Shown here one piece after another: positions 3,643 through 28,771 of a stretch of DNA of 64,000 nucleotides. The position numbers and the translations under genes are program-made. The first letter of the stretch is position 1, and the number at the start of each line of letters is the position of its first letter. A model generated the notes under the pieces. It did not search any database. It was not told the origin of the DNA and saw only the letters and a program-made list of their open reading frames with translations. Origin of the DNA: Bdellovibrionales bacterium (GTDB taxonomy: Bacteria; Bdellovibrionota; Bdellovibrionia; Bdellovibrionales; UBA1609); NCBI GenBank assembly GCA_043764155.1, contig JAYUKW010000001.1:118027-182026 (forward strand), read 5' to 3'.

Positions 3643-4427
3643 CAGGTGGGGCAGAAGTAGCTGGATCGGTTGGACTGGGTGATTTTTTTAATTGTTGTTT
3701 GGCAGATATTGCATTTGGAATTTTCTTGGCCATAGACTTGCCAATGATTTTGCATATCGCCTTGTTCGCCGGCAACGTTTTTATAATCTCGAAGTGAGCT
3801 TCCACCTTTTTTAATGGCTTCATTTAACACATTCTTGGTTTCTGTAATGATATTAATCCAATCATTAAATTTTAATTTCGATGTTATTTTTGTGGGTTTG
3901 ATTTTTGTTTTAAAAAGAATTTCAGAGGCATAAATGTTACCTACGCCTAAAATATTTTTTTGATTTAAAATCCATGATTTTATTGGTGTGTTTGATTTTT
4001 TTGCTTTTGAATAAAAATCATTTGAATCAAGCTGGTCATGAATGGGATCGGGGCCAAAATTTTTAAATGTATTCTGATCAAATTTTAAAATATATCCAAA
4101 ACGTCTAGGATCATTGTAAATTAAATTTATATTACTCCATTCAATTACAACATGATCGTGTTTTATTGGTGCGTAAGTAGCTTCATATCGCCAGTGACCA
4201 GTCATACCTAAGTGTGAAATAAAATGATGAGTATTAGTTTTTAAAATTAAAAATTTACCACGACGATCAACAGATAAAATACTTTTATTTTTCAAGTCCT
4301 TTAATTCTCTTAAAGGTAGTGGGAAGCGCAAATCTTTTCTTAGGAGCTTAATTTCTTTGATTGCCTCTTTGGGCAACTGGTTTTGAATACCTAGTTTTAT
4401 AATTTCGACTTCAGGGAGTTCTGGCAT
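3633..4427 (-). CDS. mutM: formamidopyrimidine-DNA glycosylase
   Basis: 264 aa; MPELPEVE N-terminus; C-terminal zinc finger CNICQ...FCPTCQK; stop codon lies inside the E1 arm. Confidence 0.9.
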   Translation of the reverse strand: MPELPEVEIIKLGIQNQLPKEAIKEIKLLRKDLRFPLPLRELKDLKNKSILSVDRRGKFLILKTNTHHFISHLGMTGHWRYEATYAPIKHDHVVIEWSNINLIYNDPRRFGYILKFDQNTFKNFGPDPIHDQLDSNDFYSKAKKSNTPIKSWILNQKNILGVGNIYASEILFKTKIKPTKITSKLKFNDWINIITETKNVLNEAIKKGGSSLRDYKNVAGEQGDMQNHWQVYGQENSKCNICQTTIKKITQSNRSSYFCPTCQK

Positions 4428-4644
4428 TAAGCACTCATAGCTTTTCGGTATTTAAAGTCAATAGTTGATCGTGTAATATGAAGCATTCTAATGTGTGATT
4501 GATAAAGTAAGGCCTAATAGGCTGTAATATAATCGACCACTTATAATCTGAATGTTTTATAATAAATTAGTTTAGCTATTTTAGACATTAGTCTCTTTCA
4601 TTATCGTTCAACCAAAATTAGAATAAGTAAGGAGAAAACAGTCT

Positions 4645-6360
4645 ATGTTTCATTCTTTAAATAAATACTTACGTTTTATTATTATTAATATACCTATCCT
4701 GGGACTTATATTTTTATTTCAGAATGCAATAAATGTGACCTCTGATGGAGCTATAATTCAAATGGCAATCTATCAAGATCTTTATCCAAAAAGTTTTTCT
4801 TTATTCCCAGGACAATCATCCGCCGTCGTTTTAAATCCAAAGGCGTTATTAGCTATTCATGAAAGTATGGAGTTGGGGGCAAATTCAGTATGTATCGGTG
4901 TTAACTGTAGTTTGGCGTCAACTCCTGTTAGTGCCTGTGTGCAATATAATTTTGAAACTTTTGCATCTGTAAATTCACCGGCCTTGGTAGTGCGTTATGC
5001 CCATGTTCCACAAGTAGGGGTTGCACATTGTGCAGGAACATATTGTGGATCTTCTCCAGGTTTAGTTTTATTCGGTCGGGATAATATAAATCAAAGCTGG
5101 TTACGCCTAGGTTATGCAGAACTTAATGGTGAGATCAATAAAACAAGCATAAGTGAATCCAAAATTTTAGAATTAAATAAAATCTACACACAGGTGGCTT
5201 TATGTAGAGCTGGCGGAGGATCAAGTCGAGATCATTTAAAAATAAGCAGTCTTGTGCAAAGATATGTTCAAAAAAGCACTAATTCGGCCCCTGATAAAAA
5301 TCAATGTGTGGCTCAGGTTCCTTCCAGCGTAGATAGCCTACGTTGGAAAATTCTTTCTGATTTTACACCTAAGTATAAAAATCTTATTTTAAATATTGCC
5401 ACTTATCCATTTAATAGCATGGCCTATCAGTGTTTATACAAATTAAATGCAGCTCAAAAACTAAATTTGGGTTGTGAAATAAATGAAGCTGAAAGAATTG
5501 GAAAATCCTTAATAGAACAAAGTGATTTAGACGGTGATGGAAAAATGGGTTGGGGGATTAGGTCTAATCTTGAAAATGAAAAGTGTGGTCTCGGTGGTTA
5601 TGATGCTTTAAATGATGGGACCTGTAATCCACCAAATACAGCCTATATGTTTCAAACAGGTTTAGTTTTGGATTGCTTAGGAAAGCTTTACGAAGTCACA
5701 GGAAATCCGGATTATTTAAAAGCTGTAAAAAAGGGTATAGCTGATTCTATGAATTTTGGATCTAGTCAATTGGGTGCTTGTGAAGACTGCTTTGAGTACA
5801 GTTATTCGTATTCGCCAAATGAAGTGGGTCGCTTTGTTCGCAATACTAGTTTAGAAATGGCTGTGCCACTGGCTTTTTTATATAAACATACAGGTGCACT
5901 AAAATATCGTGACCGACTTTTTCAAGTGTTAAAATCAGAACAGTTTAATTACACCAATGGAAACAAAGGCTACTTAAGTATTTATGATCCTAAATACAGC
6001 AGCTCCGAAAAATGGCGAAATGAAGACCATATGCCCTCACACATTAGATATTTAAGTCGCGTTTCAAGTGAGTTAAAAATAAATAACTTAAATCTGCTAA
6101 GTGATAATTTGCAAAAAGATTGGCGTTTTTGTTCAGGCAATCCTTGGTGTGCTAAGCAAAGAACCCAACAAGACCCAACAAATCCATATCAAAGTGGTGA
6201 TATTGATGTGTTTACAAACACATACACCACTTTAAGTTGTTCAGCTTATGGAATGTCTGCACAGCTTAGAAATGACTGTATTCATGAAATGAATGATTTT
6301 TATTTGCAAAAGAAAACGCCGACATCAGATATGCTAACTTTTATTCTTGAAAGCTTGTAA
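4645..6360 (+). CDS. hypothetical secreted protein (possible alpha/alpha-toroid fold)
   Basis: 571 aa; N-terminal hydrophobic signal/anchor; GGAG RBS; Cys-rich; helical-repeat-like segment QTGLVLDCLGKLYEVTGNPDYLKAVKKG; no family recognised with certainty. Confidence 0.5.
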   Translation: MFHSLNKYLRFIIINIPILGLIFLFQNAINVTSDGAIIQMAIYQDLYPKSFSLFPGQSSAVVLNPKALLAIHESMELGANSVCIGVNCSLASTPVSACVQYNFETFASVNSPALVVRYAHVPQVGVAHCAGTYCGSSPGLVLFGRDNINQSWLRLGYAELNGEINKTSISESKILELNKIYTQVALCRAGGGSSRDHLKISSLVQRYVQKSTNSAPDKNQCVAQVPSSVDSLRWKILSDFTPKYKNLILNIATYPFNSMAYQCLYKLNAAQKLNLGCEINEAERIGKSLIEQSDLDGDGKMGWGIRSNLENEKCGLGGYDALNDGTCNPPNTAYMFQTGLVLDCLGKLYEVTGNPDYLKAVKKGIADSMNFGSSQLGACEDCFEYSYSYSPNEVGRFVRNTSLEMAVPLAFLYKHTGALKYRDRLFQVLKSEQFNYTNGNKGYLSIYDPKYSSSEKWRNEDHMPSHIRYLSRVSSELKINNLNLLSDNLQKDWRFCSGNPWCAKQRTQQDPTNPYQSGDIDVFTNTYTTLSCSAYGMSAQLRNDCIHEMNDFYLQKKTPTSDMLTFILESL

Positions 6361-6419
6361 CTTTAAAATTAATTTCTATATAAATTTTTTGGTGAAAGAT
6401 GACTAATTTTTTTAAATTT

Positions 6420-6713
6420 TTAGTTGTAGGATTTTTTAATTATTTTAGTTAAATCTGTAAGCTTGACGGTTTTTTCTAAAGGATGTCGTAAGGTTTTATC
6501 TGCTTCGACAATATATTTGTTAGTTCTGCCAATTTTCTCTCTTTTTATATAGCCAGCATCTTCAAGATCTTGAATTATGGTTAATACAGCCCTTTCTGTA
6601 AGGCCGACTTTCGATGCGATTTCTCTAACTACGACATCGTTTTCAAGCGCTAAAATAAAATAGACATGTCCGTGATTGCTAAAAAAAGTCCAATTATCTC
6701 TGACCATATCCAT
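6420..6713 (-). CDS. winged helix-turn-helix transcriptional regulator (MarR/ArsR-like)
   Basis: 97 aa; HTH segment REIASKVGLTERAVLTIIQDLEDAGYIKRE; divergent from dabB. Confidence 0.6.
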   Translation of the reverse strand: MDMVRDNWTFFSNHGHVYFILALENDVVVREIASKVGLTERAVLTIIQDLEDAGYIKREKIGRTNKYIVEADKTLRHPLEKTVKLTDLTKIIKKSYN

Positions 6714-6736
6714 ACATTAATCTATTATGATGCATT

Positions 6737-6763
6737 ATAATACATGAAATATAATACATGAAA
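6737..6763. promoter_or_regulatory. two 13-bp direct repeats ATAATACATGAAA in the regulator/dabB divergent promoter region
   Basis: Identical copies at 6737-6749 and 6751-6763, between the wHTH start (6713) and the dabB start (6817); candidate operator. Confidence 0.35.
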
Positions 6764-6816
6764 ATATTTGCATATATAAAATGATTTTGTTATGTTTTTT
6801 TAAAAAGGAGAGCTTT

Positions 6817-8307
6817 ATGTCATCGAATTTATTAAATTTTGCATTAATTTGTCTTGTTTTAAGTCCACTAAGTCTACCATATTTAGTTTCTCAAAATTCT
6901 AAATCTACATTAAGTTTTGGAATTTACTTCGGCCCTATTTTAGCCCTTATTCTTTCAATTCAATCCTATGCTATAAATACACCGCTTATTTTAAATTCAA
7001 GAGCAGTTTTTTTACCTAATGAAAATTTAGGTTTTTACTTGGATATTTTGTCAGGATTTGTATTAAGCTTTGTTTTATTAATTGGCGCTGTGACTACAAA
7101 ATTTTCGTTCAGATACTTAGAAATAGATAAAAATAGAAATCTTTTTTTAAAATCAATATCATATGTCCTTTTTTCAGTTACGGTTATGCTTTTATCAGAT
7201 AACTTTATTCAATTTTTTGTATTTTGGGTTTTAACATCTTACTTTCTTCATAAGCTTTTGACTCATGTTAAAAATGATTCAGAGGCAGAAAGTGCGGCTC
7301 GTCAAAAGTTTTGGACTAGCAGATTAGGCGATCTATTTTTATTAATTTCAATATCTTGTTTTTATGTAATTTTTCGAAGTTTTAATTTTTCAGAATTAGT
7401 AAGAACTGATTTAATTCACAACTGGAATAATAAATGGTTACTAGATGTCGGATGCATATTTTTGGTTTTAGGTTCCATTACTAAGTCTGCACAATGGCCA
7501 TTCCAATCTTGGTTACCACTTACGATGAACACGCCCACGCCTGTTTCAGCTATTATGCATGCAGGGGTTATAAATTCTGGTGGTTATTTATTAATCAGAC
7601 TAAGTCCCCTCATGAATCAATCACATTTAAGTTTAGTATTTTTGACTCTAATAGGTGCTTTAACAGCAATTATTGGCGTCATGGTGATGTGGACCCAAAC
7701 TGATGTTAAAAAAAGTTTGGCCTATTCTACTATTTCACAGATGGGTTTTATGATGCTTCAAATTGGAGTTGGAGCCTATTCTTTAGCTTTGATTCATATG
7801 ATGGGCCATGCATTTTATAAAGCCTATTCATTTTTAACTATAGGACAGGTTGTAGATTATGGACGACTGAATCGTATTTTTGCATCTGAAAAATTGAAGT
7901 ATAATTTCAATTTTGCGTTTTCTATCCTCTTTGCTATACTGATGACAGGTGTTCTGTATTTAATTATTGATCCAAACTTTTCAAATAAGAACCAAGGCTT
8001 AGTGCTTTTAGGTATCTTAAGTCTTTCACTGTCACAAGTTCTACAAAATTCAAAAAATATATTAACGGGTTTAATAACTTGTGCTGCCATTTGTGTTCTT
8101 TACGGATTGATTTATAAAATTTCGATATTTACTTTTTTAGATGTTTTAAATCTCCCCAAGGGAATGGACTCAAGTATGTCCTTACTTATTGATTTTGTAT
8201 TAATCTTTGCTTTTTTAACTTTGTTGTTAATGCAAAGTCACTTTGTGTATCTAAATCAGCATCGTTTTTTTAGAAAAATCTATGTCAAATTATTAAATGG
8301 ATTTTAA
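6817..8307 (+). CDS. dabB: DabB, proton-conducting membrane subunit (NuoL/MrpA-like) of DAB inorganic-carbon pump
   Basis: Polytopic membrane protein; AQWPFQSWLPLTMNTPTPVSAIMHAGVINSGGYLL matches the NuoL/Mrp antiporter core; directly upstream of dabA. Start moved to the ATG at 6817 with a GGAG RBS (track ORF starts at 6781). Confidence 0.8.
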   Translation: MSSNLLNFALICLVLSPLSLPYLVSQNSKSTLSFGIYFGPILALILSIQSYAINTPLILNSRAVFLPNENLGFYLDILSGFVLSFVLLIGAVTTKFSFRYLEIDKNRNLFLKSISYVLFSVTVMLLSDNFIQFFVFWVLTSYFLHKLLTHVKNDSEAESAARQKFWTSRLGDLFLLISISCFYVIFRSFNFSELVRTDLIHNWNNKWLLDVGCIFLVLGSITKSAQWPFQSWLPLTMNTPTPVSAIMHAGVINSGGYLLIRLSPLMNQSHLSLVFLTLIGALTAIIGVMVMWTQTDVKKSLAYSTISQMGFMMLQIGVGAYSLALIHMMGHAFYKAYSFLTIGQVVDYGRLNRIFASEKLKYNFNFAFSILFAILMTGVLYLIIDPNFSNKNQGLVLLGILSLSLSQVLQNSKNILTGLITCAAICVLYGLIYKISIFTFLDVLNLPKGMDSSMSLLIDFVLIFAFLTLLLMQSHFVYLNQHRFFRKIYVKLLNGF

Positions 8308-8331
8308 TTTAAATCATCTAAAGGAGAAATT

Positions 8332-10827
8332 ATGATTCAAATACAATTTGATTCTAAAACTAAGAATTTTGATTCGAACATCCAGAATTTATTAAAAAAA
8401 TCGAATATTGTAGATGTAAAGCACTGTGTTCAATCTGTTAAGCAAAGATTAACTCCGGTATGGGATCTAAGAGATAATGTGGCAGTAAACCCTTTTTTTG
8501 GATTTAGGGATAAAAATTTTTTAGATACTTTATGTTTTCATGAGAGCTTAACTGGTAATAGTCTTTTACCTTCATATAAATATTTTAATTCCCTTTACAG
8601 ATCAGGAAAAATTACTGATGCAGATTTAAATCTAGCATTAATTGAATATAATAATAATTTCGCTAACACTGACAAAATAAGTCTACATGATCTTAAAGTG
8701 GCACTTGAGATAGGTCTTGAATCTGATATTGTTAAAATTAATTCAGGATCTGATGTTTATGATTTGCAAAATAAAACACAATGGACCCCTAAAGTTAAAA
8801 AACATATTTCTAAGTGGTTAAGTGCATACTTTGACGAAGGTCAATCTTTGTGGTCAATGCCAACTAAAAATCTTCGCCTTTTCACCGCTTGGAAAGAATT
8901 AGTGATTTACGACAAATCATTTAAAAAATTAGGATCTAAATTCAATAGTACTTTTTTTGGTTTGTCGGATCAGCCGTCAGAAGTAATTGAAAATTTATCT
9001 GAAAAGTTAATACAAAAATTTGATTTAAGTTCAGAACAACTTGAAATATATTTTTTTAAACTAATAAGTCAAATTCAAGGTTGGGCTTCTTTTGTTCAAA
9101 AGTTTGAATTCGAAGCGGCTCGAAAAAATCAAAATGATGATTTAATTAGAATCGGTGGATTTGAAGATATTTTAGCGATATGTCTCTGTTATGATTACAG
9201 TTTTCTTAATTTAGTAAATTTTGGACCTAAATTCATTTTAATAAATACTTCTTTTGATGAAATCATGACGAACGACAATGTAAAAAAAAATATTCTTCTT
9301 AAGGCTAGTGAAGATAATTATCGCAGCCAGCTATTATCAAAAATTAATGTTAATACTTTAACTGAAAAAAATAATTTTCCTGAAGCTCAAATGGCGTTCT
9401 GTATAGATGTTCGTAGCGAATTGATTCGACGTCATATTGAAAATTTATGTCCTCAGATTCAGACGATAGGTTTCGCGGGATTTTTCGGTATTTCGATGTC
9501 GCATAGGACTTTGGGCGCTTCTCATGCAGAACAACAGTGCCCGGTTTTACTAAATCCAGTTTGCGAGATTCAAGAAATATCTAAATCTAAACATTTAGGA
9601 ATAAAAATTAAAAATAAAATCAAAAATATTAATTTTTTAAAATTTTTAAAATCTGGTGTTAATTCAAGTTTCACTTTTGTAGAGACTTTTGGCTGGACAT
9701 ACATTTTTAAAATGATTAAGTCTAACCATTTCAAATGTAAGATAAATTTAAGTTTTGAACCACTTATTATTAAATCATCGAAAGATAATCAAAGAAGACC
9801 TGATCTAACATCCTTATCTTTAGATCAAAAAACTAAATTAGCTTTCGGAGCTTTAAAAAATATGGGACTCACATCAAATTTTGCTCCCTTTGTTTTTTTT
9901 ATGGGACATAAAAGTAAAACAGAAAACAACCCTCAATCTTCGGCTTTAGACTGTGGCGCTTGCGCAGGTCATAGCGGTTTGTCTAATGCTAGAACTTTAG
10001 CGGGCCTGTTAAATGATCTAGGATTGCGTGAAGAATTAAAAATGAACTATAAAATTGATATTCCATTAAACAGTTGTTTCATATCTGGAGTTCATATCAC
10101 AACAACAGATGATTTTGAATTTGATGAATATCATATTACAGACGCATCAACTTTAAAGTCTTTTTATAGTCTAAAAAATAAACTTAAATTTGCTCAAATT
10201 AAAACACTTAAAGAAAGATCAAAAAATTTTAATTATTGTGAAAATTTAAGCGACAAAGATTTAATTGAACAGATCCAAAATAAATCTAATGACTGGTCAG
10301 AGGTTCAGCCCGAATGGGCCTTAGCAAATAATGCGGCTTTTATTGCTGCACGACGAGAGCTAACTCGAGGTCTAGATTTGAACGGGCGTACTTTCCTTCA
10401 TAATTATGATGCCAAAAAAGATTTGGATCTAAGTATTTTAGAATTAATTATGACAGCCCCTATGATTGTCGCTAACTGGATTAATATGCAATATTACGTT
10501 TCCGCAGTAAATCCTAAGGATTATGGCAGTGATGATAAAACCTTACACAACATTGTAGGACAAATCGGATTAATCAGAGGAAATGGCAGCGACCTTTTGA
10601 TGGGTTTAAGTTTACAGTCCTTATTTAGAAATGGTCAGCTGATGCATCAACCTTTAAGGCTACAAGTTATATTAGAAGCGGCTACAAAAGATATGGATCA
10701 AATTATTTTAAAACATAAAATGGTCAAAGATTTAGTCGAGAATGAATGGTTAAATTTAATTTCAATATGTCCCGACTTTGGATCAAAAAAAATATACTGT
10801 AAGGGCGAATGGGTGCAATTAAATTAA
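8332..10827 (+). CDS. dabA: DabA (DUF2309), beta-carbonic-anhydrase-like subunit of DAB inorganic-carbon pump
   Basis: 831 aa; FCIDVRSE (CxDxR) and ALDCGACAGHSG Zn-site-like motifs typical of DUF2309; AGGAG RBS; paired with dabB. Confidence 0.85.
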   Translation: MIQIQFDSKTKNFDSNIQNLLKKSNIVDVKHCVQSVKQRLTPVWDLRDNVAVNPFFGFRDKNFLDTLCFHESLTGNSLLPSYKYFNSLYRSGKITDADLNLALIEYNNNFANTDKISLHDLKVALEIGLESDIVKINSGSDVYDLQNKTQWTPKVKKHISKWLSAYFDEGQSLWSMPTKNLRLFTAWKELVIYDKSFKKLGSKFNSTFFGLSDQPSEVIENLSEKLIQKFDLSSEQLEIYFFKLISQIQGWASFVQKFEFEAARKNQNDDLIRIGGFEDILAICLCYDYSFLNLVNFGPKFILINTSFDEIMTNDNVKKNILLKASEDNYRSQLLSKINVNTLTEKNNFPEAQMAFCIDVRSELIRRHIENLCPQIQTIGFAGFFGISMSHRTLGASHAEQQCPVLLNPVCEIQEISKSKHLGIKIKNKIKNINFLKFLKSGVNSSFTFVETFGWTYIFKMIKSNHFKCKINLSFEPLIIKSSKDNQRRPDLTSLSLDQKTKLAFGALKNMGLTSNFAPFVFFMGHKSKTENNPQSSALDCGACAGHSGLSNARTLAGLLNDLGLREELKMNYKIDIPLNSCFISGVHITTTDDFEFDEYHITDASTLKSFYSLKNKLKFAQIKTLKERSKNFNYCENLSDKDLIEQIQNKSNDWSEVQPEWALANNAAFIAARRELTRGLDLNGRTFLHNYDAKKDLDLSILELIMTAPMIVANWINMQYYVSAVNPKDYGSDDKTLHNIVGQIGLIRGNGSDLLMGLSLQSLFRNGQLMHQPLRLQVILEAATKDMDQIILKHKMVKDLVENEWLNLISICPDFGSKKIYCKGEWVQLN

Positions 10828-10830
10828 AAA

Positions 10831-11052
10831 TTACTCTTCAAATAAATGGTACTGTTGGTCTAAGGCATCGAAGTACAGGGTGACGTCTTTACCATCTTTA
10901 CCTAAGGCTTTAATGATATTTCTGCCGCGGGTGTTGTCCCAGGGATCAAAATAATCTTGTGTGATGGCATGGGTGAACGAAGACGTAGATTCCAATTCAT
11001 CAAACAGATCTATTTGTTCATAATCTTGATTTTTTAAAGCTAAATTTTTCAT
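10831..11052 (-). CDS. small acidic hypothetical protein co-transcribed with lexA
   Basis: 73 aa; GGAGG RBS 6 nt upstream; starts 12 nt after the lexA stop. Confidence 0.5.
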   Translation of the reverse strand: MKNLALKNQDYEQIDLFDELESTSSFTHAITQDYFDPWDNTRGRNIIKALGKDGKDVTLYFDALDQQYHLFEE

Positions 11053-11064
11053 ATTTTCCTCCAG

Positions 11065-11730
11065 TTATCTTTTTTTTATTTGTGCTTTAGCATAATTTCT
11101 CATCAGACCAATCACTAAACCTTGCAAAGTGATTTCATGGGGTTCGTACCACATGGATTTCATTTTGGAGTTGGCAGGTCTAAGTTCCACCTGACCATTT
11201 TTATAAAATATTCTTTTAACAGTGGCTGATTCATCTTCTGTCGAAACCACGGCAAGACTGCCTTCAGAGGCAAAGGAATTTTTTTCGATAATCACTAAAT
11301 CACCACTGTGAATGCCTTCGTCAATCATAGATTCCCCTTGAACACGAAGGACAAAACTTTCCTTGGGTTTTTGAACTAATGAAAGAGGAACATCGACCCA
11401 CTGGTCAAAGTTTTTTTCTTCTAAAGGGAGGCCGGCCGCCACCTTCCCAAGCAGAGGGAGGGTGACAGCGACGGACGGTTTTTCCATCAGATCGGCAAGG
11501 TAATCTGTGGAAGATTTTAAAAGCTTAAGGGAGCGTTTTTCATTCGAGTTTCCTTTTTGAATATAATTTTTGGACTCGAGCTGTTGAATGTAACGTTGAA
11601 CTGAATTGATGCTGGCAAAACCAAAATGGTTTTTAATTTCAGTAAAAGTCGGAGAGATTCCATGGGTTTTTACATAGGTTTCAATAAATTCCAGTGTCGC
11701 TTTTTCTTTGGATGTTAAGGACTTTGCCAT
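11065..11730 (-). CDS. lexA: LexA repressor (S24 peptidase)
   Basis: 221 aa; N-terminal wHTH; cleavage region VAAGLP; catalytic Ser in GESMIDEGIHSGD and Lys in ATVKRIF. Confidence 0.9.
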   Translation of the reverse strand: MAKSLTSKEKATLEFIETYVKTHGISPTFTEIKNHFGFASINSVQRYIQQLESKNYIQKGNSNEKRSLKLLKSSTDYLADLMEKPSVAVTLPLLGKVAAGLPLEEKNFDQWVDVPLSLVQKPKESFVLRVQGESMIDEGIHSGDLVIIEKNSFASEGSLAVVSTEDESATVKRIFYKNGQVELRPANSKMKSMWYEPHEITLQGLVIGLMRNYAKAQIKKR

Positions 11731-11745
11731 CGTGTAATCTCCCTG

Positions 11746-11784
11746 TGTAAGTTTTATTATAATAGTTGTAAGTTTAGTGTAAGT
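11746..11784 (-). promoter_or_regulatory. three phased direct repeats (ACTTACA on the lexA strand) upstream of lexA
   Basis: TGTAAGT on the + strand at 11746-11752, 11767-11773 and 11778-11784 (spacing 21 and 11 bp), flanking a TATAAT on the lexA strand; candidate SOS operator. Confidence 0.3.
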
Positions 11785-11872
11785 AAAGAAAATATTTAAA
11801 ATTATTTATTTTTTAGACCAAAGGATAATTTTTTATTTTTAAGTCGACATTGTTTTATTCCGAGACATATTA

Positions 11873-12703
11873 ATGCGCATTATTTTTGGGCTTATCTCCC
11901 TGCTTTTTTTTATATCTTCTGCTCAAGAAGTTGGTGACAGTTCAACGGCGGATATTGAGCCCTCGACCCGAATTGAAATGGGTACGATTTTGGGCCTCCC
12001 GATGAAGGAACCAGAAGCGCCGATTGAAACTGGACTAAGGAGTGGAATCCCTTTAAGGGGCGATACTCGAAGACAGTCTTTAGAAAATCGTAGCTTCAAT
12101 ATCGTTGAAATCGACACTTGTAATAAACAGACTACAATTAACTTTGAATTCGGTGGGGGCGAACGTTGTCGCACTGAAAGAGAAATTAATCCTTTAGCCG
12201 TCGATTTTATCAATGCCAATTTATTCGATTGCGCCTTTGAGGGTTTAAAGGCCGTTGGCAATACTAAGAAAATTCGAAGAATTGTAATCGGAAGCCAAGG
12301 GGCTTATGCACGAAGGGCTATTTGTGAAGGTTGCGTGTGGAGCACCCACTCCTTAGGTACAAGTATAGACATGAACCATTTGCAAATCGAGTTCACTGAC
12401 GGATCAAAAGGTATTTTTCCAACAGCCGCTACTGATTTATCAGGCAACATTTATCCTGGATTTTCGAGATGTCGAAGTGAGTGCGGAGAGCGAAGATTTA
12501 ATAAAAGGGGTTCGGCTCGATTCTTTGTTGATTTTCGAAAATGTATGAATGATCGCATTTACATTTTAAAAACTGAACTTCAAAGGACTCAAGGCGATTG
12601 CACTGGCGGTCTTTTAGACTGTGATACAAATGCGGATCACAATAATCACATTCATCTTTCTGTTCCGTTTTGCCCTCAACCTAAAAACACGGGTGAGATA
12701 TGA
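11873..12703 (+). CDS. secreted LAS-superfamily zinc peptidase-like protein
   Basis: 276 aa; signal peptide; WSTHSLGTSIDM and DHNNHIHLSV (H..D / HxH ligand pattern). Confidence 0.55.
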   Translation: MRIIFGLISLLFFISSAQEVGDSSTADIEPSTRIEMGTILGLPMKEPEAPIETGLRSGIPLRGDTRRQSLENRSFNIVEIDTCNKQTTINFEFGGGERCRTEREINPLAVDFINANLFDCAFEGLKAVGNTKKIRRIVIGSQGAYARRAICEGCVWSTHSLGTSIDMNHLQIEFTDGSKGIFPTAATDLSGNIYPGFSRCRSECGERRFNKRGSARFFVDFRKCMNDRIYILKTELQRTQGDCTGGLLDCDTNADHNNHIHLSVPFCPQPKNTGEI

Positions 12704-12810
12704 TATTTCGGCTTCTGTTGGATTTAGATTCGGGCAGTAATTGTGGGTGTAAAACAAAAGCTGAATTTTTATCTATTGATTTAAAAGATATCTGTTCGGT
12801 AAAGTAAACC

Positions 12811-13509
12811 ATGAACGTTTTATTATCCGACTTAAAAAATCTCAAAGGGTCTTGGAAAGAAAAACTAAATTCTGAAGTCAGCAGGCCTTACATGCTGAAA
12901 TTATTTAATTTTTTAGAAACTGAAAGTCAAAATGGTAAAATCATTTATCCTGAAAAAAAAAACTACTTTAAGGCTCTAGAGCTATGTCCTTTTGAAAAAA
13001 CAAAAGTCATTATTTTAGGTCAAGATCCTTATCACGGTGAAGGCCAAGCTCACGGCTTAAGTTTTTCGGTCTCTAGCGATACAAAATTACCTCCATCTTT
13101 AAAAAATATTTTTAAAGAATTACAATCAGATCTGGGTTCTGGTTGGAAGGCCCCACGGACCGGGGATCTTTCAACATGGGCTAAATCAGGGGTCTTATTA
13201 CTAAACACAACTATGACAGTTGAAAAATCAAAGCCAGGCTCTCACCAAAAAAAGGGCTGGGAGATTTTTACAGATTTTTTATTAACTGAATTATCTCAAG
13301 ATTCTAGACCCAAAGTGTTTATTCTTTGGGGGGCGCCGGCATTAAAAAAAGTAGGACTTATTGACCCTAATACTCATTTCATCATTCAGTCGTCACATCC
13401 GTCGCCGCTTTCAAGTTACCGAGGATTTTTTGGGAGCCGTCCCTTCTCTAAAGCCAATGAATTTTTAACAAGAACTGATCAAAGTGCCATTGATTGGTCT
13501 TTGGTTTGA
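12811..13509 (+). CDS. ung: uracil-DNA glycosylase
   Basis: 232 aa; GQDPYHGEGQAHGLSFS and HPSPLS family-1 UDG motifs. Confidence 0.9.
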   Translation: MNVLLSDLKNLKGSWKEKLNSEVSRPYMLKLFNFLETESQNGKIIYPEKKNYFKALELCPFEKTKVIILGQDPYHGEGQAHGLSFSVSSDTKLPPSLKNIFKELQSDLGSGWKAPRTGDLSTWAKSGVLLLNTTMTVEKSKPGSHQKKGWEIFTDFLLTELSQDSRPKVFILWGAPALKKVGLIDPNTHFIIQSSHPSPLSSYRGFFGSRPFSKANEFLTRTDQSAIDWSLV

Positions 13510-13627
13510 TTGAAATTTAAGTTAAATTAGCTCTAACTTAGATTTAAGTTAAAATACGCTTTGTGTGAGTAGTCCAGAAAAAAGCGCTATTCGTGAATTG
13601 ATTCTTAGCATATAATTTAATTAAATT

Positions 13628-14659
13628 ATGATAAAAAAATTCTTTGGTCCGTTTAAAGAAAAAATCCTTATCGTTGATCAACTCACTCCAAAAAACTTTG
13701 AACCAAAACACAGCCTGTTGTTTATTGATGAGAATTTAAAAGAATTTCCAGAAATCAAAAAGTTGGAATCTAAATTTCAAATTTTATTTTTAAAAGCGGG
13801 CGAAGATTTAAAATCTATCGACGGATTAAAATCAGTTTTAATAAAGATCGAACCCCTGCTTGAAAACATCCAACCCCCATATTGTTTTGTGGCTATCGGC
13901 GGGGGAAGTATGGGTGATTTTTGTGGATTTTTAGCTAGTATCTATCATCGTGGTGTCGATTTTATACAGTGCCCAAGTACTTGGCTTGCAGCCATTGATT
14001 CGTCACATGGGGGTAAAACTGCACTAAATGTTTTAAGTTTTAAAAATCAAATTGGAACTTTTTATCCAGCAAAACAAATAATAGTTTCTAAATCCTTGCT
14101 TCAACATCAAAGCCCAACAAAAGCCATGGGCGAGATCACTAAAACTATTTTGCTTTCTAGCCAAAATTCGAAACTTAGAAATTTTATAAATAAAAATTGG
14201 CCGGCTGATTTTGATACAGTTTGGTCTTCGATCACAGACTTTATTAATGTTAAAAATTCTTATGTTAAAAAAGACCCTAAAGAAAAAAAGAAAGAAAGGT
14301 TTAAATTAAATTTAGGTCATACGGTGGGACACGCCTTAGAAAAAATTTATGGTTTACCCCATTCAGAAGCTGTTCTAAGAGGTGTTATTTTTGCTGTCAC
14401 GTGGAGTGTTAAAAAGAAATACTCACATATAAAGCTGCTTCAAGTTTTAATTCATTATCTAGAGATCAATCAATTTTTCCTTGGCGACCTACCCAAAAAG
14501 TCTGAAGTTGAATTCGAAAAGGCTTTACTAAAAGATAAAAAACGAAGTGGTGAAGATATTAATTTTGTTTTTTTAAAAAACTTCAGAGCTGTAATTAAAA
14601 AAGTCACTGTTCCAGAAATTATTAAGGAACTTAAAAATCAAGGCTTAATTGCCAAATGA
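13628..14659 (+). CDS. aroB: 3-dehydroquinate synthase
   Basis: 343 aa; GGGSMGDFCGF, DSSHGGKTALN, LNLGHTVGHALE. Confidence 0.8.
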   Translation: MIKKFFGPFKEKILIVDQLTPKNFEPKHSLLFIDENLKEFPEIKKLESKFQILFLKAGEDLKSIDGLKSVLIKIEPLLENIQPPYCFVAIGGGSMGDFCGFLASIYHRGVDFIQCPSTWLAAIDSSHGGKTALNVLSFKNQIGTFYPAKQIIVSKSLLQHQSPTKAMGEITKTILLSSQNSKLRNFINKNWPADFDTVWSSITDFINVKNSYVKKDPKEKKKERFKLNLGHTVGHALEKIYGLPHSEAVLRGVIFAVTWSVKKKYSHIKLLQVLIHYLEINQFFLGDLPKKSEVEFEKALLKDKKRSGEDINFVFLKNFRAVIKKVTVPEIIKELKNQGLIAK

Positions 14660-24333: not shown

Positions 24334-25029
24334 TTAATCCTCAATTGAATATTCGAACGGATAATCCATTCGAGGGATAAGGGCTTGTTTCACTTCTGAG
24401 AACCAATGTCTTTTTTGTGGGTCCCAGCGAAATCCAATTCGACGGGCTTTATCTCGGTCATCAAATCCAACGTGAGCAAAGACCTTAACAAGAGGGGACT
24501 GTTGAATCATCACAATCTCTTCAATGTCATACTTAGATAAAAGCTTTAAAGTGGTCAAAACATCAAAAAGGGCGCGGTGGGCAAATGGATTTAAAAAACC
24601 GTGCTCAGCGGCAAGGTAGGACAGCTTTCTGGTTTTAATTTCTTGGGCGTAAGGAATATCAGTTAAGGTGTCGATCCAAGGTTTTTTAAGCTTAGGCATT
24701 TGGTAACTTAAATAGGCTTGATTTAAAAACTCAGAATCAAAGCTAATGGCGTTGTGGCCCACTAAGTATTCAGCTTGGTTAGCGAGTTCAGTTAATGTTT
24801 TAAGAGCGTCACTTAAAGGGATCCCGTACGTCTTCAAATCTTCAGATGATATTCCAGTGATACTTTGAACTTCGTTCGAAAGATCTATGTTATCGAAATA
24901 GATAAGTTCGTTAAAAATCTTTTTGGGTGCTTGTCCTTCGGTGTCCCAAAGCACAGCCCCAATTTCAATGATTTGGTCTTTTTCAAAACTTAATCCAGAG
25001 GTTTCTAAATCGACTCCTAAAACTAACAT
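24334..25029 (-). CDS. DEDDh 3'-5' exonuclease (DnaQ-like) with C-terminal DUF5710-like domain
   Basis: LGVDLETSGL, VGHNAISFDSEFL, HRALFDV; C-terminal RRIGFRWDPQKRHWF. Start moved to the ATG at 25029 (AAAGGA RBS), because 25030-25146 of the track ORF covers the rnpB terminator and rnpB 3' end. Confidence 0.75.
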   Translation of the reverse strand: MLVLGVDLETSGLSFEKDQIIEIGAVLWDTEGQAPKKIFNELIYFDNIDLSNEVQSITGISSEDLKTYGIPLSDALKTLTELANQAEYLVGHNAISFDSEFLNQAYLSYQMPKLKKPWIDTLTDIPYAQEIKTRKLSYLAAEHGFLNPFAHRALFDVLTTLKLLSKYDIEEIVMIQQSPLVKVFAHVGFDDRDKARRIGFRWDPQKRHWFSEVKQALIPRMDYPFEYSIED

Positions 25030-25061
25030 GTGATGTCCTTTTGTTGGAACTTTTCTTTTTA

Positions 25062-25088
25062 TAAAATGGCGGGGGTCTTTCGACCCCC
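25062..25088 (-). terminator. intrinsic terminator of rnpB
   Basis: On the - strand: GGGGGTC-GAAA-GACCCCC (7-bp GC stem, GNRA loop), followed by GCCATTTTAT. Confidence 0.7.
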
Positions 25089-25100
25089 ATTGACGAACCT

Positions 25101-25467
25101 GTAAGTTTCTCTTTAAGCCGGATTCTGTAACTTTAAAAATCGTCACAATTTTTAAAATCTAACCATCATTCCTCTAGGATTAAAGTTACCTTTAACCTCA
25201 AGCAATCTACCCGAAAACTGGTGCGAGCCGCACTCATAGCGTTTCCCTATTTGACCTTGCTTCGCGCAGAGTTTTGCTGTTTTCACTCCAACAGCTCCCC
25301 GAAGATCTCCCGTTCCCGATCTAAGGATCATAGCCTTGGACATTCTCTCTGTTCCACTGTTCCTCATCTTACGATGGAGGGGCGTTACCCCATGCGCTGC
25401 TCTACGAAGTCCGGACTTTCCTCCAAAATGGTTTAACCCATTTCAGCGATGGTCTTTCAAAACTTAC
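25101..25467 (-). ncRNA. rnpB: RNase P RNA (bacterial type A-like)
   Basis: The - strand contains GGAGGAAAGUCCGGAC (CR-I/P4 5'), GGUAACGCC, CAGUGGAACAGAGAG, GCAAGGUCAAAUAGGG, GGGUAGAUUGCUUGAG, CCUAGAGGAAUGA and ACAGAAUCCGGCUUA (P4 3'). P1 pairs GUAAGUUU with AAACUUAC; P2 pairs GACCAUC with GAUGGUU. Confidence 0.93.
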
Positions 25468-25490
25468 ATTATAATGGATATTGAATTTTA

Positions 25491-25518
25491 GACCGAATGA
25501 CAAGGACTGATTTCCTAT
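25491..25518. repeat. solitary degenerate copy of cassette D (rc orientation)
   Basis: gaccgaatgacaaggactgatttcctat shares the 12-mer cgaatgacaagg plus ctg..tcctat with the D' regions of E1 (3530-3553) and E2 (39979-40000). Confidence 0.5.
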
Positions 25519-25558
25519 ATCTGAATAAGATAGGTTTAAACTGTTTCGGTTGCAGTTT

Positions 25559-27526
25559 TTAAGCAGCTATTTTATCAAAAAGCTGGTGTTCAGTACGATC
25601 TATAATCATATTTATGTCTTCTTTAGAACCTTTAAAATTTTGTTGAACAAGGGTTTCTAATTTAGCAATTGATAATTTTCGTTCTAATAATAGTTCATTT
25701 TGAATGGCGTTAAACAATTTAGCTTGCTCGCCAAGAACTTTTTTAGCTTTGACCAAGGCTTCATTGAGCCACTTTTCTTTCAATAAATCGTCTTCAAATT
25801 TTAATGAGCTTAAGTTATGAGGCAGGTCATTATGTTTTAAGGATTGACCTATATGAGACCCCATTCCGACTTCAGAAATCATGTGAGAAACAAGATCTGT
25901 AGCCATTTTTAAATCTTCATATGCACCACTACTAAGTCCCGATTTTGTAAAAAGCATTTCTTCAATGGCATAGCCAGATAAAATCATTGCTAAATTAGAT
26001 TCGGCGATTTCTTTAGTTATAACTTTGATTTCTTTAAATCTAACTTGTGGATTTACATTTTGAGCATATCCTTCTTCGAAAATTATGCGTTCTGGAAGCT
26101 GACCAAATAAGGTGACACCGACAACGATATGGGCGGCCTCGTGATTCGAAATATATTTTAGTTGTACGTTTGAAAATGTTACTTTTTTGTTTTCGGAAGA
26201 TTTATCAAAAACGAGTTGATCTTGATAAATTATTTTATCATCAGAAATTAAACTAAAACTATTTTTAAAATCATCAAAATCAACCACCGCAAGCTTAGCG
26301 TTTATTTTATAAAGCTCTAAGATCCACGTTGGGACTCTGACGTCAATTACTTCACCAATTGTGGAAATTATAGGTCGTACACCTTGGGATGGAATTAAAC
26401 CATTCTTTAAAATAATTTTTTTAACGTTATTAGTAAATTGAATTTTAAGTAAAAAATTATCCTCAATGTTTTTTGAAATTTCGGTTAACTTTTTTTCAAC
26501 AATTCGTTCATAATCATGCTCTTTTAAATTTTTAAAAATAACAAATGAAGTGCCCATCCGTGCTACTTGCTCGGCTCTAAATCTTTTGAACAAACCTTCT
26601 TTAATATTTGAAGTCGTAATTTTTGAAACTTTGTCAGCAAGTTCATCTGGAGTTAAACTAACAGGCGAGACAGTTTTAATATTGCTAAAGGATTCATCAA
26701 TATTGCCTGACAGAATAATTAAGCACTTGGTAAAATCTAAACACAAAGTTTCTTTTTCATTTTTCTCTAATTTTGATAAAATCCATAAAATAACATCAAC
26801 GGGATTAGTCTCAAGAGCTGTTAAAAGTAATTTTTGTGATGCATTTGAAATATTTAGATATGGAATTAAAAAACTAATTTCAAACTCAGATGGACTGTAA
26901 GTATAACCCTGTTGTTGCATATTTAAATTTTTTAAAATATTTTTTATTTGGCCTATATTACTTTTAAACATGGAACTTGAGACTTCTACCTTACCAGTGT
27001 CTAACAGAGCCCAAAAATTTCTTAAACCAATCCTGTCAATTTCTTGTCCTCCGTCGCTTATAGTTCTGGCTATTTGAATCTCATCAAAAAGTAGGACTCC
27101 GCACTGGCCAGATAAATTAATAAAACTTTGAATTAATGCCCCTTCGTCTCGCTCTGCATAACTGTCCACGTATTTGCCCATGTCATTGCCAGTATAGAGA
27201 CTTCTTTTATCTAGTTTTGAAATTAGGCTTTGAACTAAGCTGGTTTTTCCAACCCCAGTCATTCCCCAAAGTGAAACAATGACAGGTCGTCTTAACGATT
27301 CTGGAATTAGAAACCAAGGTCGTATATACATTATAAGTTGATCAATTTGATTATCAATTCCAATAAATTCAGTTTTAATTTGTCGACATGCATTTTGAAG
27401 TAAGGCTTCTTTTTCTTTAATAATTTTTAAATCGTAATTTATTTGTTTATTTTTATCTTCAATTTTTTCCAATGATTGAACAAATAGATTAAAATTAGAT
27501 TTTTCATTAACTTTAAGATCTTCCAT
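25559..27526 (-). CDS. soluble Clp/Hsp100-D2-type AAA+ ATPase fused to FtsH-type M41 peptidase-like domain
   Basis: 655 aa; no TM. WGMTGVGKTS (Walker A), VLLFDEIQ (Walker B), LIILSGNIDES, FRAEQVARMG and QGVRPIIS resemble ClpB/ClpA D2. C-terminal NHEAAHIVVG (HEXXH) and GAYEDLKMATDLVSHMISEVGMG resemble FtsH M41. Confidence 0.65.
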   Translation of the reverse strand: MEDLKVNEKSNFNLFVQSLEKIEDKNKQINYDLKIIKEKEALLQNACRQIKTEFIGIDNQIDQLIMYIRPWFLIPESLRRPVIVSLWGMTGVGKTSLVQSLISKLDKRSLYTGNDMGKYVDSYAERDEGALIQSFINLSGQCGVLLFDEIQIARTISDGGQEIDRIGLRNFWALLDTGKVEVSSSMFKSNIGQIKNILKNLNMQQQGYTYSPSEFEISFLIPYLNISNASQKLLLTALETNPVDVILWILSKLEKNEKETLCLDFTKCLIILSGNIDESFSNIKTVSPVSLTPDELADKVSKITTSNIKEGLFKRFRAEQVARMGTSFVIFKNLKEHDYERIVEKKLTEISKNIEDNFLLKIQFTNNVKKIILKNGLIPSQGVRPIISTIGEVIDVRVPTWILELYKINAKLAVVDFDDFKNSFSLISDDKIIYQDQLVFDKSSENKKVTFSNVQLKYISNHEAAHIVVGVTLFGQLPERIIFEEGYAQNVNPQVRFKEIKVITKEIAESNLAMILSGYAIEEMLFTKSGLSSGAYEDLKMATDLVSHMISEVGMGSHIGQSLKHNDLPHNLSSLKFEDDLLKEKWLNEALVKAKKVLGEQAKLFNAIQNELLLERKLSIAKLETLVQQNFKGSKEDINMIIDRTEHQLFDKIAA

Positions 27527-27769: not shown

Positions 27770-28771
27770 ATGTTTAAAATAATAATTATATTTTTAACTT
27801 TTTGGTTGTCTATTGGATCAATTTCCGCCGAACTAAATATCAAATCAGAAGAAAAATCTTGGGCTGAACTGTCTCCTTCAAAAGAATTCTTATATCAAAA
27901 TGCTAAAACAATTTTAATTAGTCTGTCAGACTATTTAGAAATTGATATCAATTCTATTCATTCAAATGATCCTCTATTTAATGAAACATTAAAAAATAAA
28001 AATTGCTTAGTTAGATCTAAATCTTTAATTTTAGATTCTAGATGTTTAAGACTTATTAATACTGAATTTCCAGATGCATTTGAACAAATGGTTTATGATC
28101 TTGTTAGCTTTTATGATCAAGACACACCTTCTTTTGATGTTAAACTTTCTGCATCTGAATATTCAAAACTAGATAAAAATGAAGTTTTTGAAAGATTAAA
28201 AAGTAAGATTGATAGCTCAGTTAATGAAATCAACCCAATTTCAATTCTTTCATCTCAAGTCTATAATGTACTTTGGACTGTGCCGGGCTATGATGCGAAT
28301 TGTTTTGGTACGGCGTACACAGCTGTGACCCCAAATGTTCCTTTAAAGTACCGCGATTTATTATGGAGCAATTATAATCCCGCGGGATATGACCGCTATA
28401 AAATCAATGATGAATTAGTTTTTGGTGATATCATTGAGTTTGAAATTCCTGGTGATGGTCACGCTATTGTTTATGTTGGTACAGATCAAGAGGGTGAACA
28501 ATTAGTTTTAACTAAAAATGGATTTATGCCTTCTGTACTTCAAGTGATGAAGTACAAAGATGTGTATAGAATTTATGAAGTCTACAGCATTACAAAAGTA
28601 AATGTCTGGCGCTATAATTCAAAAAAAGTGGGTGGGTCTTCAACGATTTTATCAAATTCGAATGTGCCAAACATATTTAATCCCAGAAGTGGTTACGTCA
28701 AATTGTCAGTCGATGAATTGATGGCTAAAGATTTTGCTTTCAGATTTAAAAAGTGGATGACTTCAAACTAA
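27770..28771 (+). CDS. secreted protein with possible papain-like (NlpC/P60-type) Cys-His domain
   Basis: 333 aa; signal peptide; DANCFGTAY and, about 45 aa later, GDGHAIVYVG. Confidence 0.4.
   Translation: MFKIIIIFLTFWLSIGSISAELNIKSEEKSWAELSPSKEFLYQNAKTILISLSDYLEIDINSIHSNDPLFNETLKNKNCLVRSKSLILDSRCLRLINTEFPDAFEQMVYDLVSFYDQDTPSFDVKLSASEYSKLDKNEVFERLKSKIDSSVNEINPISILSSQVYNVLWTVPGYDANCFGTAYTAVTPNVPLKYRDLLWSNYNPAGYDRYKINDELVFGDIIEFEIPGDGHAIVYVGTDQEGEQLVLTKNGFMPSVLQVMKYKDVYRIYEVYSITKVNVWRYNSKKVGGSSTILSNSNVPNIFNPRSGYVKLSVDELMAKDFAFRFKKWMTSN

Follow-up and report, generated by a model that had tools for sequence, protein, structure and literature searches.

ATP-dependent proteolysis in bacteria is the work of a textbook set of machines, comprising ClpXP, ClpAP, and ClpCP, HslUV, Lon, FtsH, and the proteasome. 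To our knowledge, all characterized M41 peptidases are driven by a membrane-anchored AAA ring of the classical clade. In FtsH and its relatives YME1 and AFG3L2, the M41 peptidase lies in the same chain as the AAA+ module and C-terminal to it. Lon (LonA/LonB) follows the same single-chain design, with an AAA+ ring of the HCLR clade placed ahead of a C-terminal protease; its protease, however, is a Ser-Lys enzyme of family S16 unrelated to M41, and it carries a long N-terminal substrate-binding domain of its own. Here, we describe a gene that joins a motor of the Clp/Hsp100 D2 type to an FtsH-type peptidase in one soluble polypeptide. It lies in a 64,000-nucleotide stretch of DNA from a Bdellovibrionales bacterium (contig JAYUKW010000001.1, positions 118,027 to 182,026; hereafter, the window, in which all positions are numbered). 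The gene is a complete open reading frame (ORF) at 25559..27526 on the reverse (-) strand, starts with ATG, and encodes a soluble Hsp100-D2-type AAA+/M41 metalloprotease fusion of 655 amino acids, as judged from the ORF listing, Pfam matches, and motifs. All parts of the gene discussed below are on this (-) strand. A protein identical to the window protein had already been deposited (P0001) from a metagenome scaffold.

The first-pass annotation of this DNA, made by eye from the sequence, had assigned the ATPase half to the D2 type of ClpA and ClpB rather than to that of FtsH. This assignment is supported by profile searches, structural comparison, and the family of the lid domain. An alignment of 65 homologues, 22 to 55% identical to the window protein, served as the basis for profiles and conservation counts. 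When this profile was searched against the PDB, its N-terminal part matched the D2 rings of ClpC, ClpE, Hsp104, ClpB, and ClpA with E values of 1e-21 to 1e-9 (ClpC D2, 2e-21; ClpB, 4e-16), while the ATPase domain of FtsH was not matched and FtsH was reached through its protease domain alone. Separate profiles for each half were also scored on six AAA+ proteins of Escherichia coli K-12. The ATPase-half profile gave 67.6 bits with ClpB, both strong segments falling in D2, and 44.1 bits with ClpA; Lon was the next-best match at 21.0 bits, followed by ClpX (18.3 bits), HslU (14.7 bits), and FtsH (0.7 bits). In Pfam, ClpB_D2-small (PF10431) matched residues 334-396 at 30 bits against a cutoff of 21.9, and the general AAA family (PF00004) reached 24.3 bits, limited to the stretch from Walker A to Walker B. 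Across the 65 aligned members, Peptidase_M41 was found in all 65, ClpB_D2-small in 59, and AAA_2 in 39 (the last at E ≤ 1e-3), and none of the 16 Pfam families that these members matched was a classical-clade lid family.

Structural comparison gave the same picture. An AlphaFold2 model of the full window protein, built from the 65-member alignment, had a predicted local distance difference test score (pLDDT) of 89.1 and a predicted TM-score of 0.82. With the whole model as query, Foldseek returned both FtsH chains and isolated nucleotide-binding domain 2 (NBD2) of ClpB; FtsH was matched over both domains but with a high root-mean-square deviation (rmsd), and ClpB NBD2 was matched with a target-normalized TM-score of 0.70 to 0.76 and an rmsd of 4.2 to 4.8 Å. 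A second model, of residues 1-410 alone, had a pLDDT of 90.3. For the ATPase half alone, the top 50 Foldseek matches in the PDB were all Hsp100 proteins (ClpB NBD2, ClpC/ClpC1, ClpA, Hsp104, and Skd3). The D2 domains of ClpB, ClpA, ClpC, and Hsp104 are therefore the best match to window residues 33-438 in both sequence and structure. On the combined evidence of the PDB profile search, the lid families, the 0.7-bit score on FtsH, and the 50 top structural matches, we rejected a classical, FtsH-type ATPase.

A MAFFT alignment with the D2 domains of E. coli ClpB and ClpA places the motifs of the window protein in one-to-one correspondence with theirs, from the N-terminal helix through to the last strands of the small domain. 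The large (alpha/beta) domain, delimited by profiles, alignment, and Foldseek, spans residues 33-330 (26537..27430). It opens with helix 33-53, which aligns as L..LK.EFIGID..ID against L..ELHHRVIGQNEAVD; the "N-terminal coiled-coil-like region" noted in the first-pass annotation is thus a real helix, but an ordinary component of the Hsp100 D2 module. Walker A (GMTGVGKT, residues 88-95; 27242..27265), with G88, G91, G93, K94, and T95 invariant among the 65 homologues, is matched, as are the beta-2 strand and Walker B (VLLFDE, residues 144-149; 27080..27097), in which D148 is invariant and E149 is at least 90% conserved. Helix alpha-3 aligns as FWALLDTGKV against FNILLQVLDDGRLT, and the second strand of the pre-sensor-1 hairpin, together with sensor 1, as LCLDFTKCLIILSGN against RTVDFRNTVVIMTSN. 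The sensor-1 residue itself, N275 (26702..26704), closes the motif IILSGN (residues 270-275), is invariant, and matches the TSN motif of ClpB D2. The arginine finger, R323 (26558..26560), stands in FRAEQVARM (residues 316-324), where FRAEQVAR is paired with FRPEFINR of ClpB D2 and F316, E319, and R323 are invariant. In the D2-small (lid) domain (residues 334-438; 26213..26527), the sensor-2 motif GVRPI (residues 382-386; 26369..26383) aligns with GARP of ClpB and ClpA (QGVRP against YGARP), with Q381, G382, and R384 invariant. The terminal beta-strands of this domain, within residues 412-437 (412-418, 423-428, and 431-437 in the model), align with the C-terminal strands of ClpB and ClpA D2. 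Because the correspondence extends to these last strands, the ATPase half is a complete Hsp100 D2 unit, and the point of fusion lies at about residue 440.

The remainder of the chain is a peptidase M41 domain (residues 450-655; 25562..26179), identified by Pfam, by the PDB profile search, and by its score on E. coli FtsH. The earlier assignment of the C-terminal 190 or so residues to this family holds with high significance. Pfam Peptidase_M41 (PF01434) matched residues 453-619 with an E value of 1.8e-12 and 47.9 bits against a cutoff of 29.9, covering profile positions 5-184 of 191. In the PDB, the C-terminal part of the alignment profile matched the protease domains of FtsH, YME1, and AFG3L2 with E values of 1e-30 to 1e-21; the best FtsH chains scored about 2e-30 (1.9e-30 to 2.8e-30), and YME1 scored 4e-28. 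The protease-half profile gave 111.0 bits on residues 405-595 of E. coli FtsH and less than 1 bit on each of the other five E. coli AAA+ proteins. The zinc-binding and catalytic motif HEAAH occupies residues 462-466 (26129..26143), with H462, E463, and H466 invariant in the 65 homologues, and an HExxH motif was present in all of the best 120 of 1,167 matches from a wider search (described below). Within LSGYAIEEMLF...GAYEDLKMAT (residues 516-543), the segment that carries E522 of the AEE motif and D538 of EDLKMAT (25913..25963) aligns residue by residue with Aquifex aeolicus FtsH, and G518, E522, and D538 are invariant. We take E522 and D538 to be the equivalents of E. coli FtsH E479 and D495, the latter the third zinc ligand. 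The window protein thus shares with FtsH, YME1, and AFG3L2 a homologous and complete M41 domain, including the HExxH motif, the AEE glutamate, and the aspartate third ligand.

All motifs quoted in the first-pass annotation were therefore found, at the positions given above. Two findings had been set out beforehand as contradicting a chimera, namely, a classical-clade ATPase and an insignificant likeness to M41; we examined both, and neither held. Conservation among the 65 homologues is complete or at least 90% for Walker A and B, N275, R323, G382, R384, HExxH, G518, E522, and D538. Since catalytic residues are conserved in both halves, both are under purifying selection as active enzymes, and the conserved peptidase residues exclude a dead peptidase of the FtsHi kind. 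The ATPase and peptidase sites of the window protein are both intact and are predicted to be active.

The protein differs from each of its parent families. FtsH has a classical-clade ATPase, transmembrane helices, and a periplasmic domain, none of which is present in the window protein, and the lid of the latter is ClpB_D2-small. A sensor-2 arginine and a pre-sensor-1 hairpin further set the window protein apart from FtsH. We found no membrane segment in the 655 residues: the highest mean Kyte-Doolittle hydropathy over 19 residues is only 1.41, in agreement with the earlier statement that the protein lacks one. Models specific for FtsH were missed by a wide margin, with 44.8 bits against a threshold of 600 for TIGR01241 (over residues 445-567, in the protease region) and 23.3 against 1008 for PRK10733. 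Compared with Clp/Hsp100 proteins, the window protein has no N domain, D1 ring, or M-domain, and its protease is covalently fused; like Skd3 (CLPB), it has a single D2-type ring. It also differs from them in a pore loop 1 about 10 residues shorter, an extra loop after Walker B, and a helical bundle of about 80 amino acids. No IGL or IGF tripeptide was found at the ClpA loop position in the MAFFT alignment; since there is no IG(F/L) loop, docking to ClpP is not expected, and the fused protease makes such a loop unnecessary.

Several of these features are particular to the family or to part of it. The most prominent is the helical bundle (residues 182-260; 26747..26983), located by the model and by the ClpB/ClpA D2 alignment at the tip of the pre-sensor-1 beta-hairpin. 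In the model, its helices (184-204, 214-218, 221-224, 228-240, and 242-258) lie between the hairpin strands 179-181 and 262-264, which precede the sensor-1 strand 269-274; in the alignment, the insertion point is GRLT|DGQGRTVDF. The bundle is present in all 65 members at a length of 79 to 129 amino acids (median, 84) and is poorly conserved in sequence. We considered whether the insert is a basic, RNA-binding element, but its net charge is about zero and lysine and arginine are not enriched. Its site is presumably that of the RKH loop of ClpX, around the substrate entrance, and given this position a role in recognizing substrates or adaptors is suggested. Immediately after Walker B, a conserved loop (IQIARTISDGGQ, residues 150-161; 27044..27079) forms a 10-residue insertion relative to ClpB and ClpA D2, with Q151, T155, and G160 at least 90% conserved; we assume from its position that it takes the place of the pore-2 loop of ClpX. 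The predicted pore loop 1 (MGKYVDSYAERDEG, residues 116-129, including Y119-V120; 27140..27181) lies between strand 111-115 and helix 130-138, is modeled at low pLDDT, and aligns with the region of the GYVG loop of ClpB D2. It follows the pattern G-K-[Y/F/H]-V in the clade of the window protein and S-N-x-D-x-T-x-W in most other members. Finally, residues 1-30 (27437..27526), with one short helix at 11-22, form an N-terminal extension that is specific to the window's clade, missing from most homologues (mostly gaps in the 65-member alignment), and modeled at low to medium pLDDT. Together, the bundle and this extension are likely to form a substrate- or adaptor-recognition element.

Taking these features together, we consider it probable, by analogy with described machines, that the window gene encodes a hexameric, Lon-like, self-compartmentalized cytosolic ATP-dependent zinc metalloprotease, with a single N-terminal AAA+ ring of the Clp/Hsp100 D2 type (HCLR clade) fused in-chain to a C-terminal M41 peptidase. 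Ring assembly is suggested by the conservation of a trans-acting arginine finger. By analogy with ClpB D2, Lon, and FtsH, six chains would form two stacked rings, the ATPase ring on the M41 ring. ATP would be bound by Walker A and B and hydrolyzed with the aid of R323, acting in trans, and sensor-2 R384, with R323 coupling hydrolysis between subunits. Pore loops, including Y119-V120, may then pull an unfolded polypeptide hand over hand along the central channel and into the M41 chamber. In that chamber, the polypeptide would be cleaved to peptides by HEAAH, zinc, and D538. The helical bundle would sit on the substrate-entry face and, with the N-terminal extension, select the substrate or adaptor, taking the place of the N domains, D1 ring, and membrane anchor found in the parent families. 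Assembly into a hexamer, processive unfolding, and the function of the insert are all proposed from such analogies.

Several observations weigh against this reading. The domain scan suggested in the first-pass annotation placed PF01434 and PF10431 above their cutoffs but not AAA_2 (PF07724), which spans residues 84-323 at 20.6 bits, under its gathering score of 27, because the insertion of about 80 amino acids interrupts the match. Pore loop 1 falls about 10 residues short of its length in Clp proteins, varies in sequence across the family, and has no fixed aromatic-hydrophobic-glycine (Ar-phi-Gly) motif. Lastly, the window's clade has no informative gene neighbors, so that the physiological role is a guess.

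The noncanonical, variable pore loop 1 could instead point to a regulated, site-specific protease, in which the AAA+ module acts as an ATP-dependent switch or substrate clamp and holds one or a few specific targets (a repressor, toxin, or ribosomal protein, for example) in place for M41 to cut once. The poorly conserved helical insert resembles a specificity module, and a WYL-type ligand-sensing regulator accompanies the gene in many relatives, as is typical of signal-controlled systems. We nevertheless regard this alternative as unlikely. The full equipment of a translocase (the arginine finger, sensor 2, and the post-Walker B loop at the presumed pore-2 site) is invariant, and the pore-loop-1 segment retains at least one aromatic residue in 60 of the 65 members, although its position is not conserved. 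Moreover, the characterized M41 domains that we know of are all chamber proteases fed by an AAA ring. A processive, self-compartmentalized protease remains our preferred reading of the window gene.

The first-pass annotation did not recognize the architecture as a known one. A correction is needed here: the fusion is not one of a kind but belongs to a sizeable and apparently uncharacterized family rather than being an oddity of this genome. A phmmer search against 1.84 billion representative sequences returned 1,570 clusters (at 50% identity) with E ≤ 1e-3, of which 720 reached E ≤ 1e-30. In a word-indexed search with 1,167 matches, the best 120 were all 607 to 730 amino acids long and had the same domain content. 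With one genome taken per GTDB species, relatives are encoded in at least 580 genomes, mostly Bacteroidota among the matches listed. The closest relatives among those matches come from Bdellovibrionota metagenome-assembled genomes (MAGs), at 56% and then 32 to 35% identity; other carriers among them include Acidobacteriota, Actinomycetota, Spirochaetota, Ignavibacteria, one Polyangiaceae MAG, and two Gammaproteobacteria. We found neither a Pfam or NCBIfam model built for the family nor an experimental structure of a member, and its members carry public labels such as "AAA family ATPase," "peptidase M41," "cell division protease FtsH," and "hypothetical protein." In one source, several members of 677 amino acids (P0029, P0054, P0061, P0078, and P0089) go under the name "DNA polymerase IIIc chi subunit," an evident misannotation. 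Some placements are at odds with taxonomy: the loci of the Polyangiaceae MAG and a Cytophagales MAG are nearly identical (L029 and L030; L054 and L055 were noted alongside), and the copy in a Hydrocarboniphaga (Gammaproteobacteria) MAG is nested among Bacteroidota copies. Either recent horizontal transfer or misbinned contigs would account for these cases. Carriage on mobile elements was rejected, as tblastn at E ≤ 1e-10 against 72,556 plasmids and 50,697 phage records found no match.

The existence of this family has implications for how degradation machines are built. An Hsp100-type motor on an M41 peptidase, in a soluble family, implies that protease chamber and motor are interchangeable modules, and the family adds an uncharacterized degradation machine present in at least 580 species. 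The most valuable lead to its function comes from the gene context of a sister clade, which links it to RNA repair and ribosome rescue. The RtcB2-PrfH module is a described ribosome rescue and repair system (PMC9304027, PMC9223846, PMC6514570), in which PrfH frees the nascent chain when a ribosome carries damage in its decoding center and RtcB2 reseals the 16S rRNA (PMC9304027, PMC9223846).

To characterize gene context across the family, we called ORFs in 80 loci, grouped them by BLASTP, and used Pfam to identify the clusters that recurred. An RtcB RNA ligase was encoded in 22 of the 80 loci, a WYL-WCX regulator in 17, and a PrfH-type release-factor homologue (RF-1 domain, about 209 amino acids) in 12. 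Less frequent were an HD plus AAA_33 kinase (6 loci), a KptA/Tpt1 2'-phosphotransferase (5 loci), a PF09414 RNA ligase (4 loci), and DUF2779 (3 loci). Nearly all of these recurrent neighbors shared the strand of the protease gene, with short gaps between the genes. Some homologues are encoded directly downstream of rtcB-prfH on the same strand, often together with KptA, RNA ligase, and HD-kinase genes. The order RtcB-PrfH-(small ORF)-AAA/M41-KptA occurred in L059, L071, L011, and L014, which come from Tannerella, Dysgonomonadaceae, and Dysgonomonas MAGs and form compact one-strand islands at about locus positions 4000 to 14600. Downstream of KptA, the HD plus AAA_33 kinase was present in L059 and L071, and the PF09414 RNA ligase was present as well in L059, so that in islands of the L059 type the RtcB pathway and a heal-and-seal pathway both surround the protease. 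A second order, RtcB-AAA/M41-x-RNA ligase-HD-kinase, was found in L036, L041, and L047. In a third (L029, L030, L044, L037, and L012), WYL-AAA/M41(-DUF2779), the WYL-WCX gene lies directly upstream on the same strand; the DUF2779 (RNase-H-like) gene follows the protease in L029, L030, and L044, and this WYL context lacks RtcB.

A neighbor-joining tree of the loci resolved three groups. Clade A is Bdellovibrionota and includes the window protein, clade B mixes Acidobacteriota, Actinomycetota, and Bacteroidota, and clade C is mainly Bacteroidota. All RtcB-, PrfH-, or WYL-linked loci fall in clade C, where they account for 34 of its 47 loci, and no conserved neighbors were found in clades A and B. 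RtcB, PrfH, WYL, KptA, and RNA ligase were absent from the 8 other Bdellovibrionota loci and from the 64-kb window. The link to RNA repair is therefore real for part of the family, but, being confined to clade C, it is not transferable to the window gene on present evidence. As a stand-alone chromosomal gene of the Bdellovibrionota clade, whose neighbors are housekeeping genes, the clade A copy is taken to be a housekeeping or stress protease.

For clade C, the operons suggest, as a hypothesis from gene context, that the protease plausibly contributes a degradation step linked to RNA repair and ribosome rescue. It might remove truncated, untagged nascent chains after their release, ribosomal proteins that have been damaged, or the ribonuclease toxin responsible for the attack. 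The operons thus yield a testable hypothesis on the fate of nascent chains, ribotoxins, and damaged ribosomal proteins during ribosome repair. A protein-disposal step at this stage is not addressed in the RtcB2-PrfH literature covered here, and an AAA+/M41 protease is unmentioned in the papers on that system (PMC9304027, PMC9223846). The main text of Burroughs and Aravind (2019) names four accessory genes of the RFH-RtcB unit, for a TPR protein, a Pol-beta nucleotidyltransferase (NTase), a Zn-ribbon protein, and a protein with charged helices, and none of the four is a protease. In the literature covered, we found no description of an Hsp100-type AAA+/M41 fusion or of an AAA+/M41 protease in RtcB operons; Burroughs and Aravind (2016; NAR 44:8525) and the 2019 supplement were outside this search, and an earlier mention there is possible. 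A wider proposal, which we put forward tentatively, is that these proteins constitute an undescribed cytosolic "Clp-FtsH hybrid" class of AAA+ protease, with an Hsp100-D2 ring joined to an M41 ring and separate from ClpXP/ClpAP, HslUV, Lon, and FtsH, that many of the Bacteroidota relatives are the missing proteolytic arm of the RtcB-PrfH system, and that the Bdellovibrionota copy is a stand-alone housekeeping descendant. Such an arm would be the bacterial counterpart of Vms1, a release-factor-like hydrolase, working with Cdc48, an AAA+ extractor.

Could the window copy itself act in an RNA damage response or in ribosome rescue, its partner genes being located elsewhere in the genome? Its targets would then be PrfH-released chains, damaged ribosomal proteins, or ribonuclease toxins. 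The RtcB-PrfH-AAA/M41-KptA operons and the RNA ligase and HD-kinase genes of the sister clade speak for this, as does the proximity of the gene to rnpB, which encodes the RNase P RNA, and to a gene for an RNase_T-family exonuclease. We nonetheless find it quite improbable. The partner genes are missing from the window and from all 8 other Bdellovibrionota loci, rnpB is not adjacent in 7 related loci, and the tree parts the window's clade from the one linked to RNA repair. In addition, the genes for P0040 and P0017 (from independent gene calls) and those of clade B are also solitary among housekeeping genes. The window copy gives no contextual clue to its substrate, and a housekeeping or stress protease remains the reading we prefer for it.

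We also considered membership in known antiphage defense systems. DolB (Dodola) and PDC-M37B ATPases bear a weak likeness to the window protein at the N-terminal helix and Walker A (PADLOC; E value of 5e-9 over residues 15-109), and PADLOC reported DolB in 53 and PDC-M37B in 45 of the 65 aligned members. These are partial, ATPase-level matches with no partner-gene context, and membership was rejected. That the window protein is a nonproteolytic chaperone or disaggregase with a degenerate M41 domain, as in chloroplast FtsHi, or a toxic effector of abortive-infection defense is very improbable: D2-only Hsp100 rings such as Skd3, itself among the structural matches, are disaggregases, and the DolB and PDC-M37B matches lend the defense variant some color, but HExxH, E522, and D538 are invariant, the PADLOC match ends at residue 109 and leaves the M41 half without any defense-model match, no plasmid or phage match was found, and the clade's neighbors are housekeeping genes.

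Downstream of the protease gene and on the same strand lies rnpB (25098-25466, (-); 207.5 bits), as the first-pass annotation had stated. The adjacency is present but not conserved: no Rfam family, rnpB included, was found in 7 related Bdellovibrionota loci, and the neighbors of the 56%-identical orthologue differ from those in the window. On these grounds we rejected the adjacency as a functional link and judge it coincidental. No terminator-like hairpin was detected in the interval from the protease stop codon to rnpB (25467-25558), and the sole strong one follows rnpB, at 25089-25070. Read-through from the protease gene into rnpB is thus possible, in an arrangement that relatives do not share.

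On the other side of the protease gene, a divergently transcribed ORF (27770-28771, (+)) encodes a protein of 333 amino acids. It had been described as a secreted putative Cys peptidase; the hydrophobic N-terminal leader is there, but the peptidase label is unproven, as the only match is a weak one to Amidase_6 (E value of 0.018, residues 208-248). Beyond rnpB, the ORF listed at 24334-25146 (-) encodes an RNase_T/DnaQ-like exonuclease with a C-terminal DUF5710 domain. As listed, it overlaps the 3' end of rnpB by 49 nucleotides and contains the terminator-like hairpin at 25089-25070; because the Pfam match begins at residue 45, the true start is probably an internal methionine near residue 40. 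Two ORFs of 71 amino acids, at 25152-25367 (-) and 25221-25436 (+), are both nested wholly within rnpB and almost certainly do not represent real genes, although one of the two was annotated as a gene in the public entry (L001, 10184-10375).

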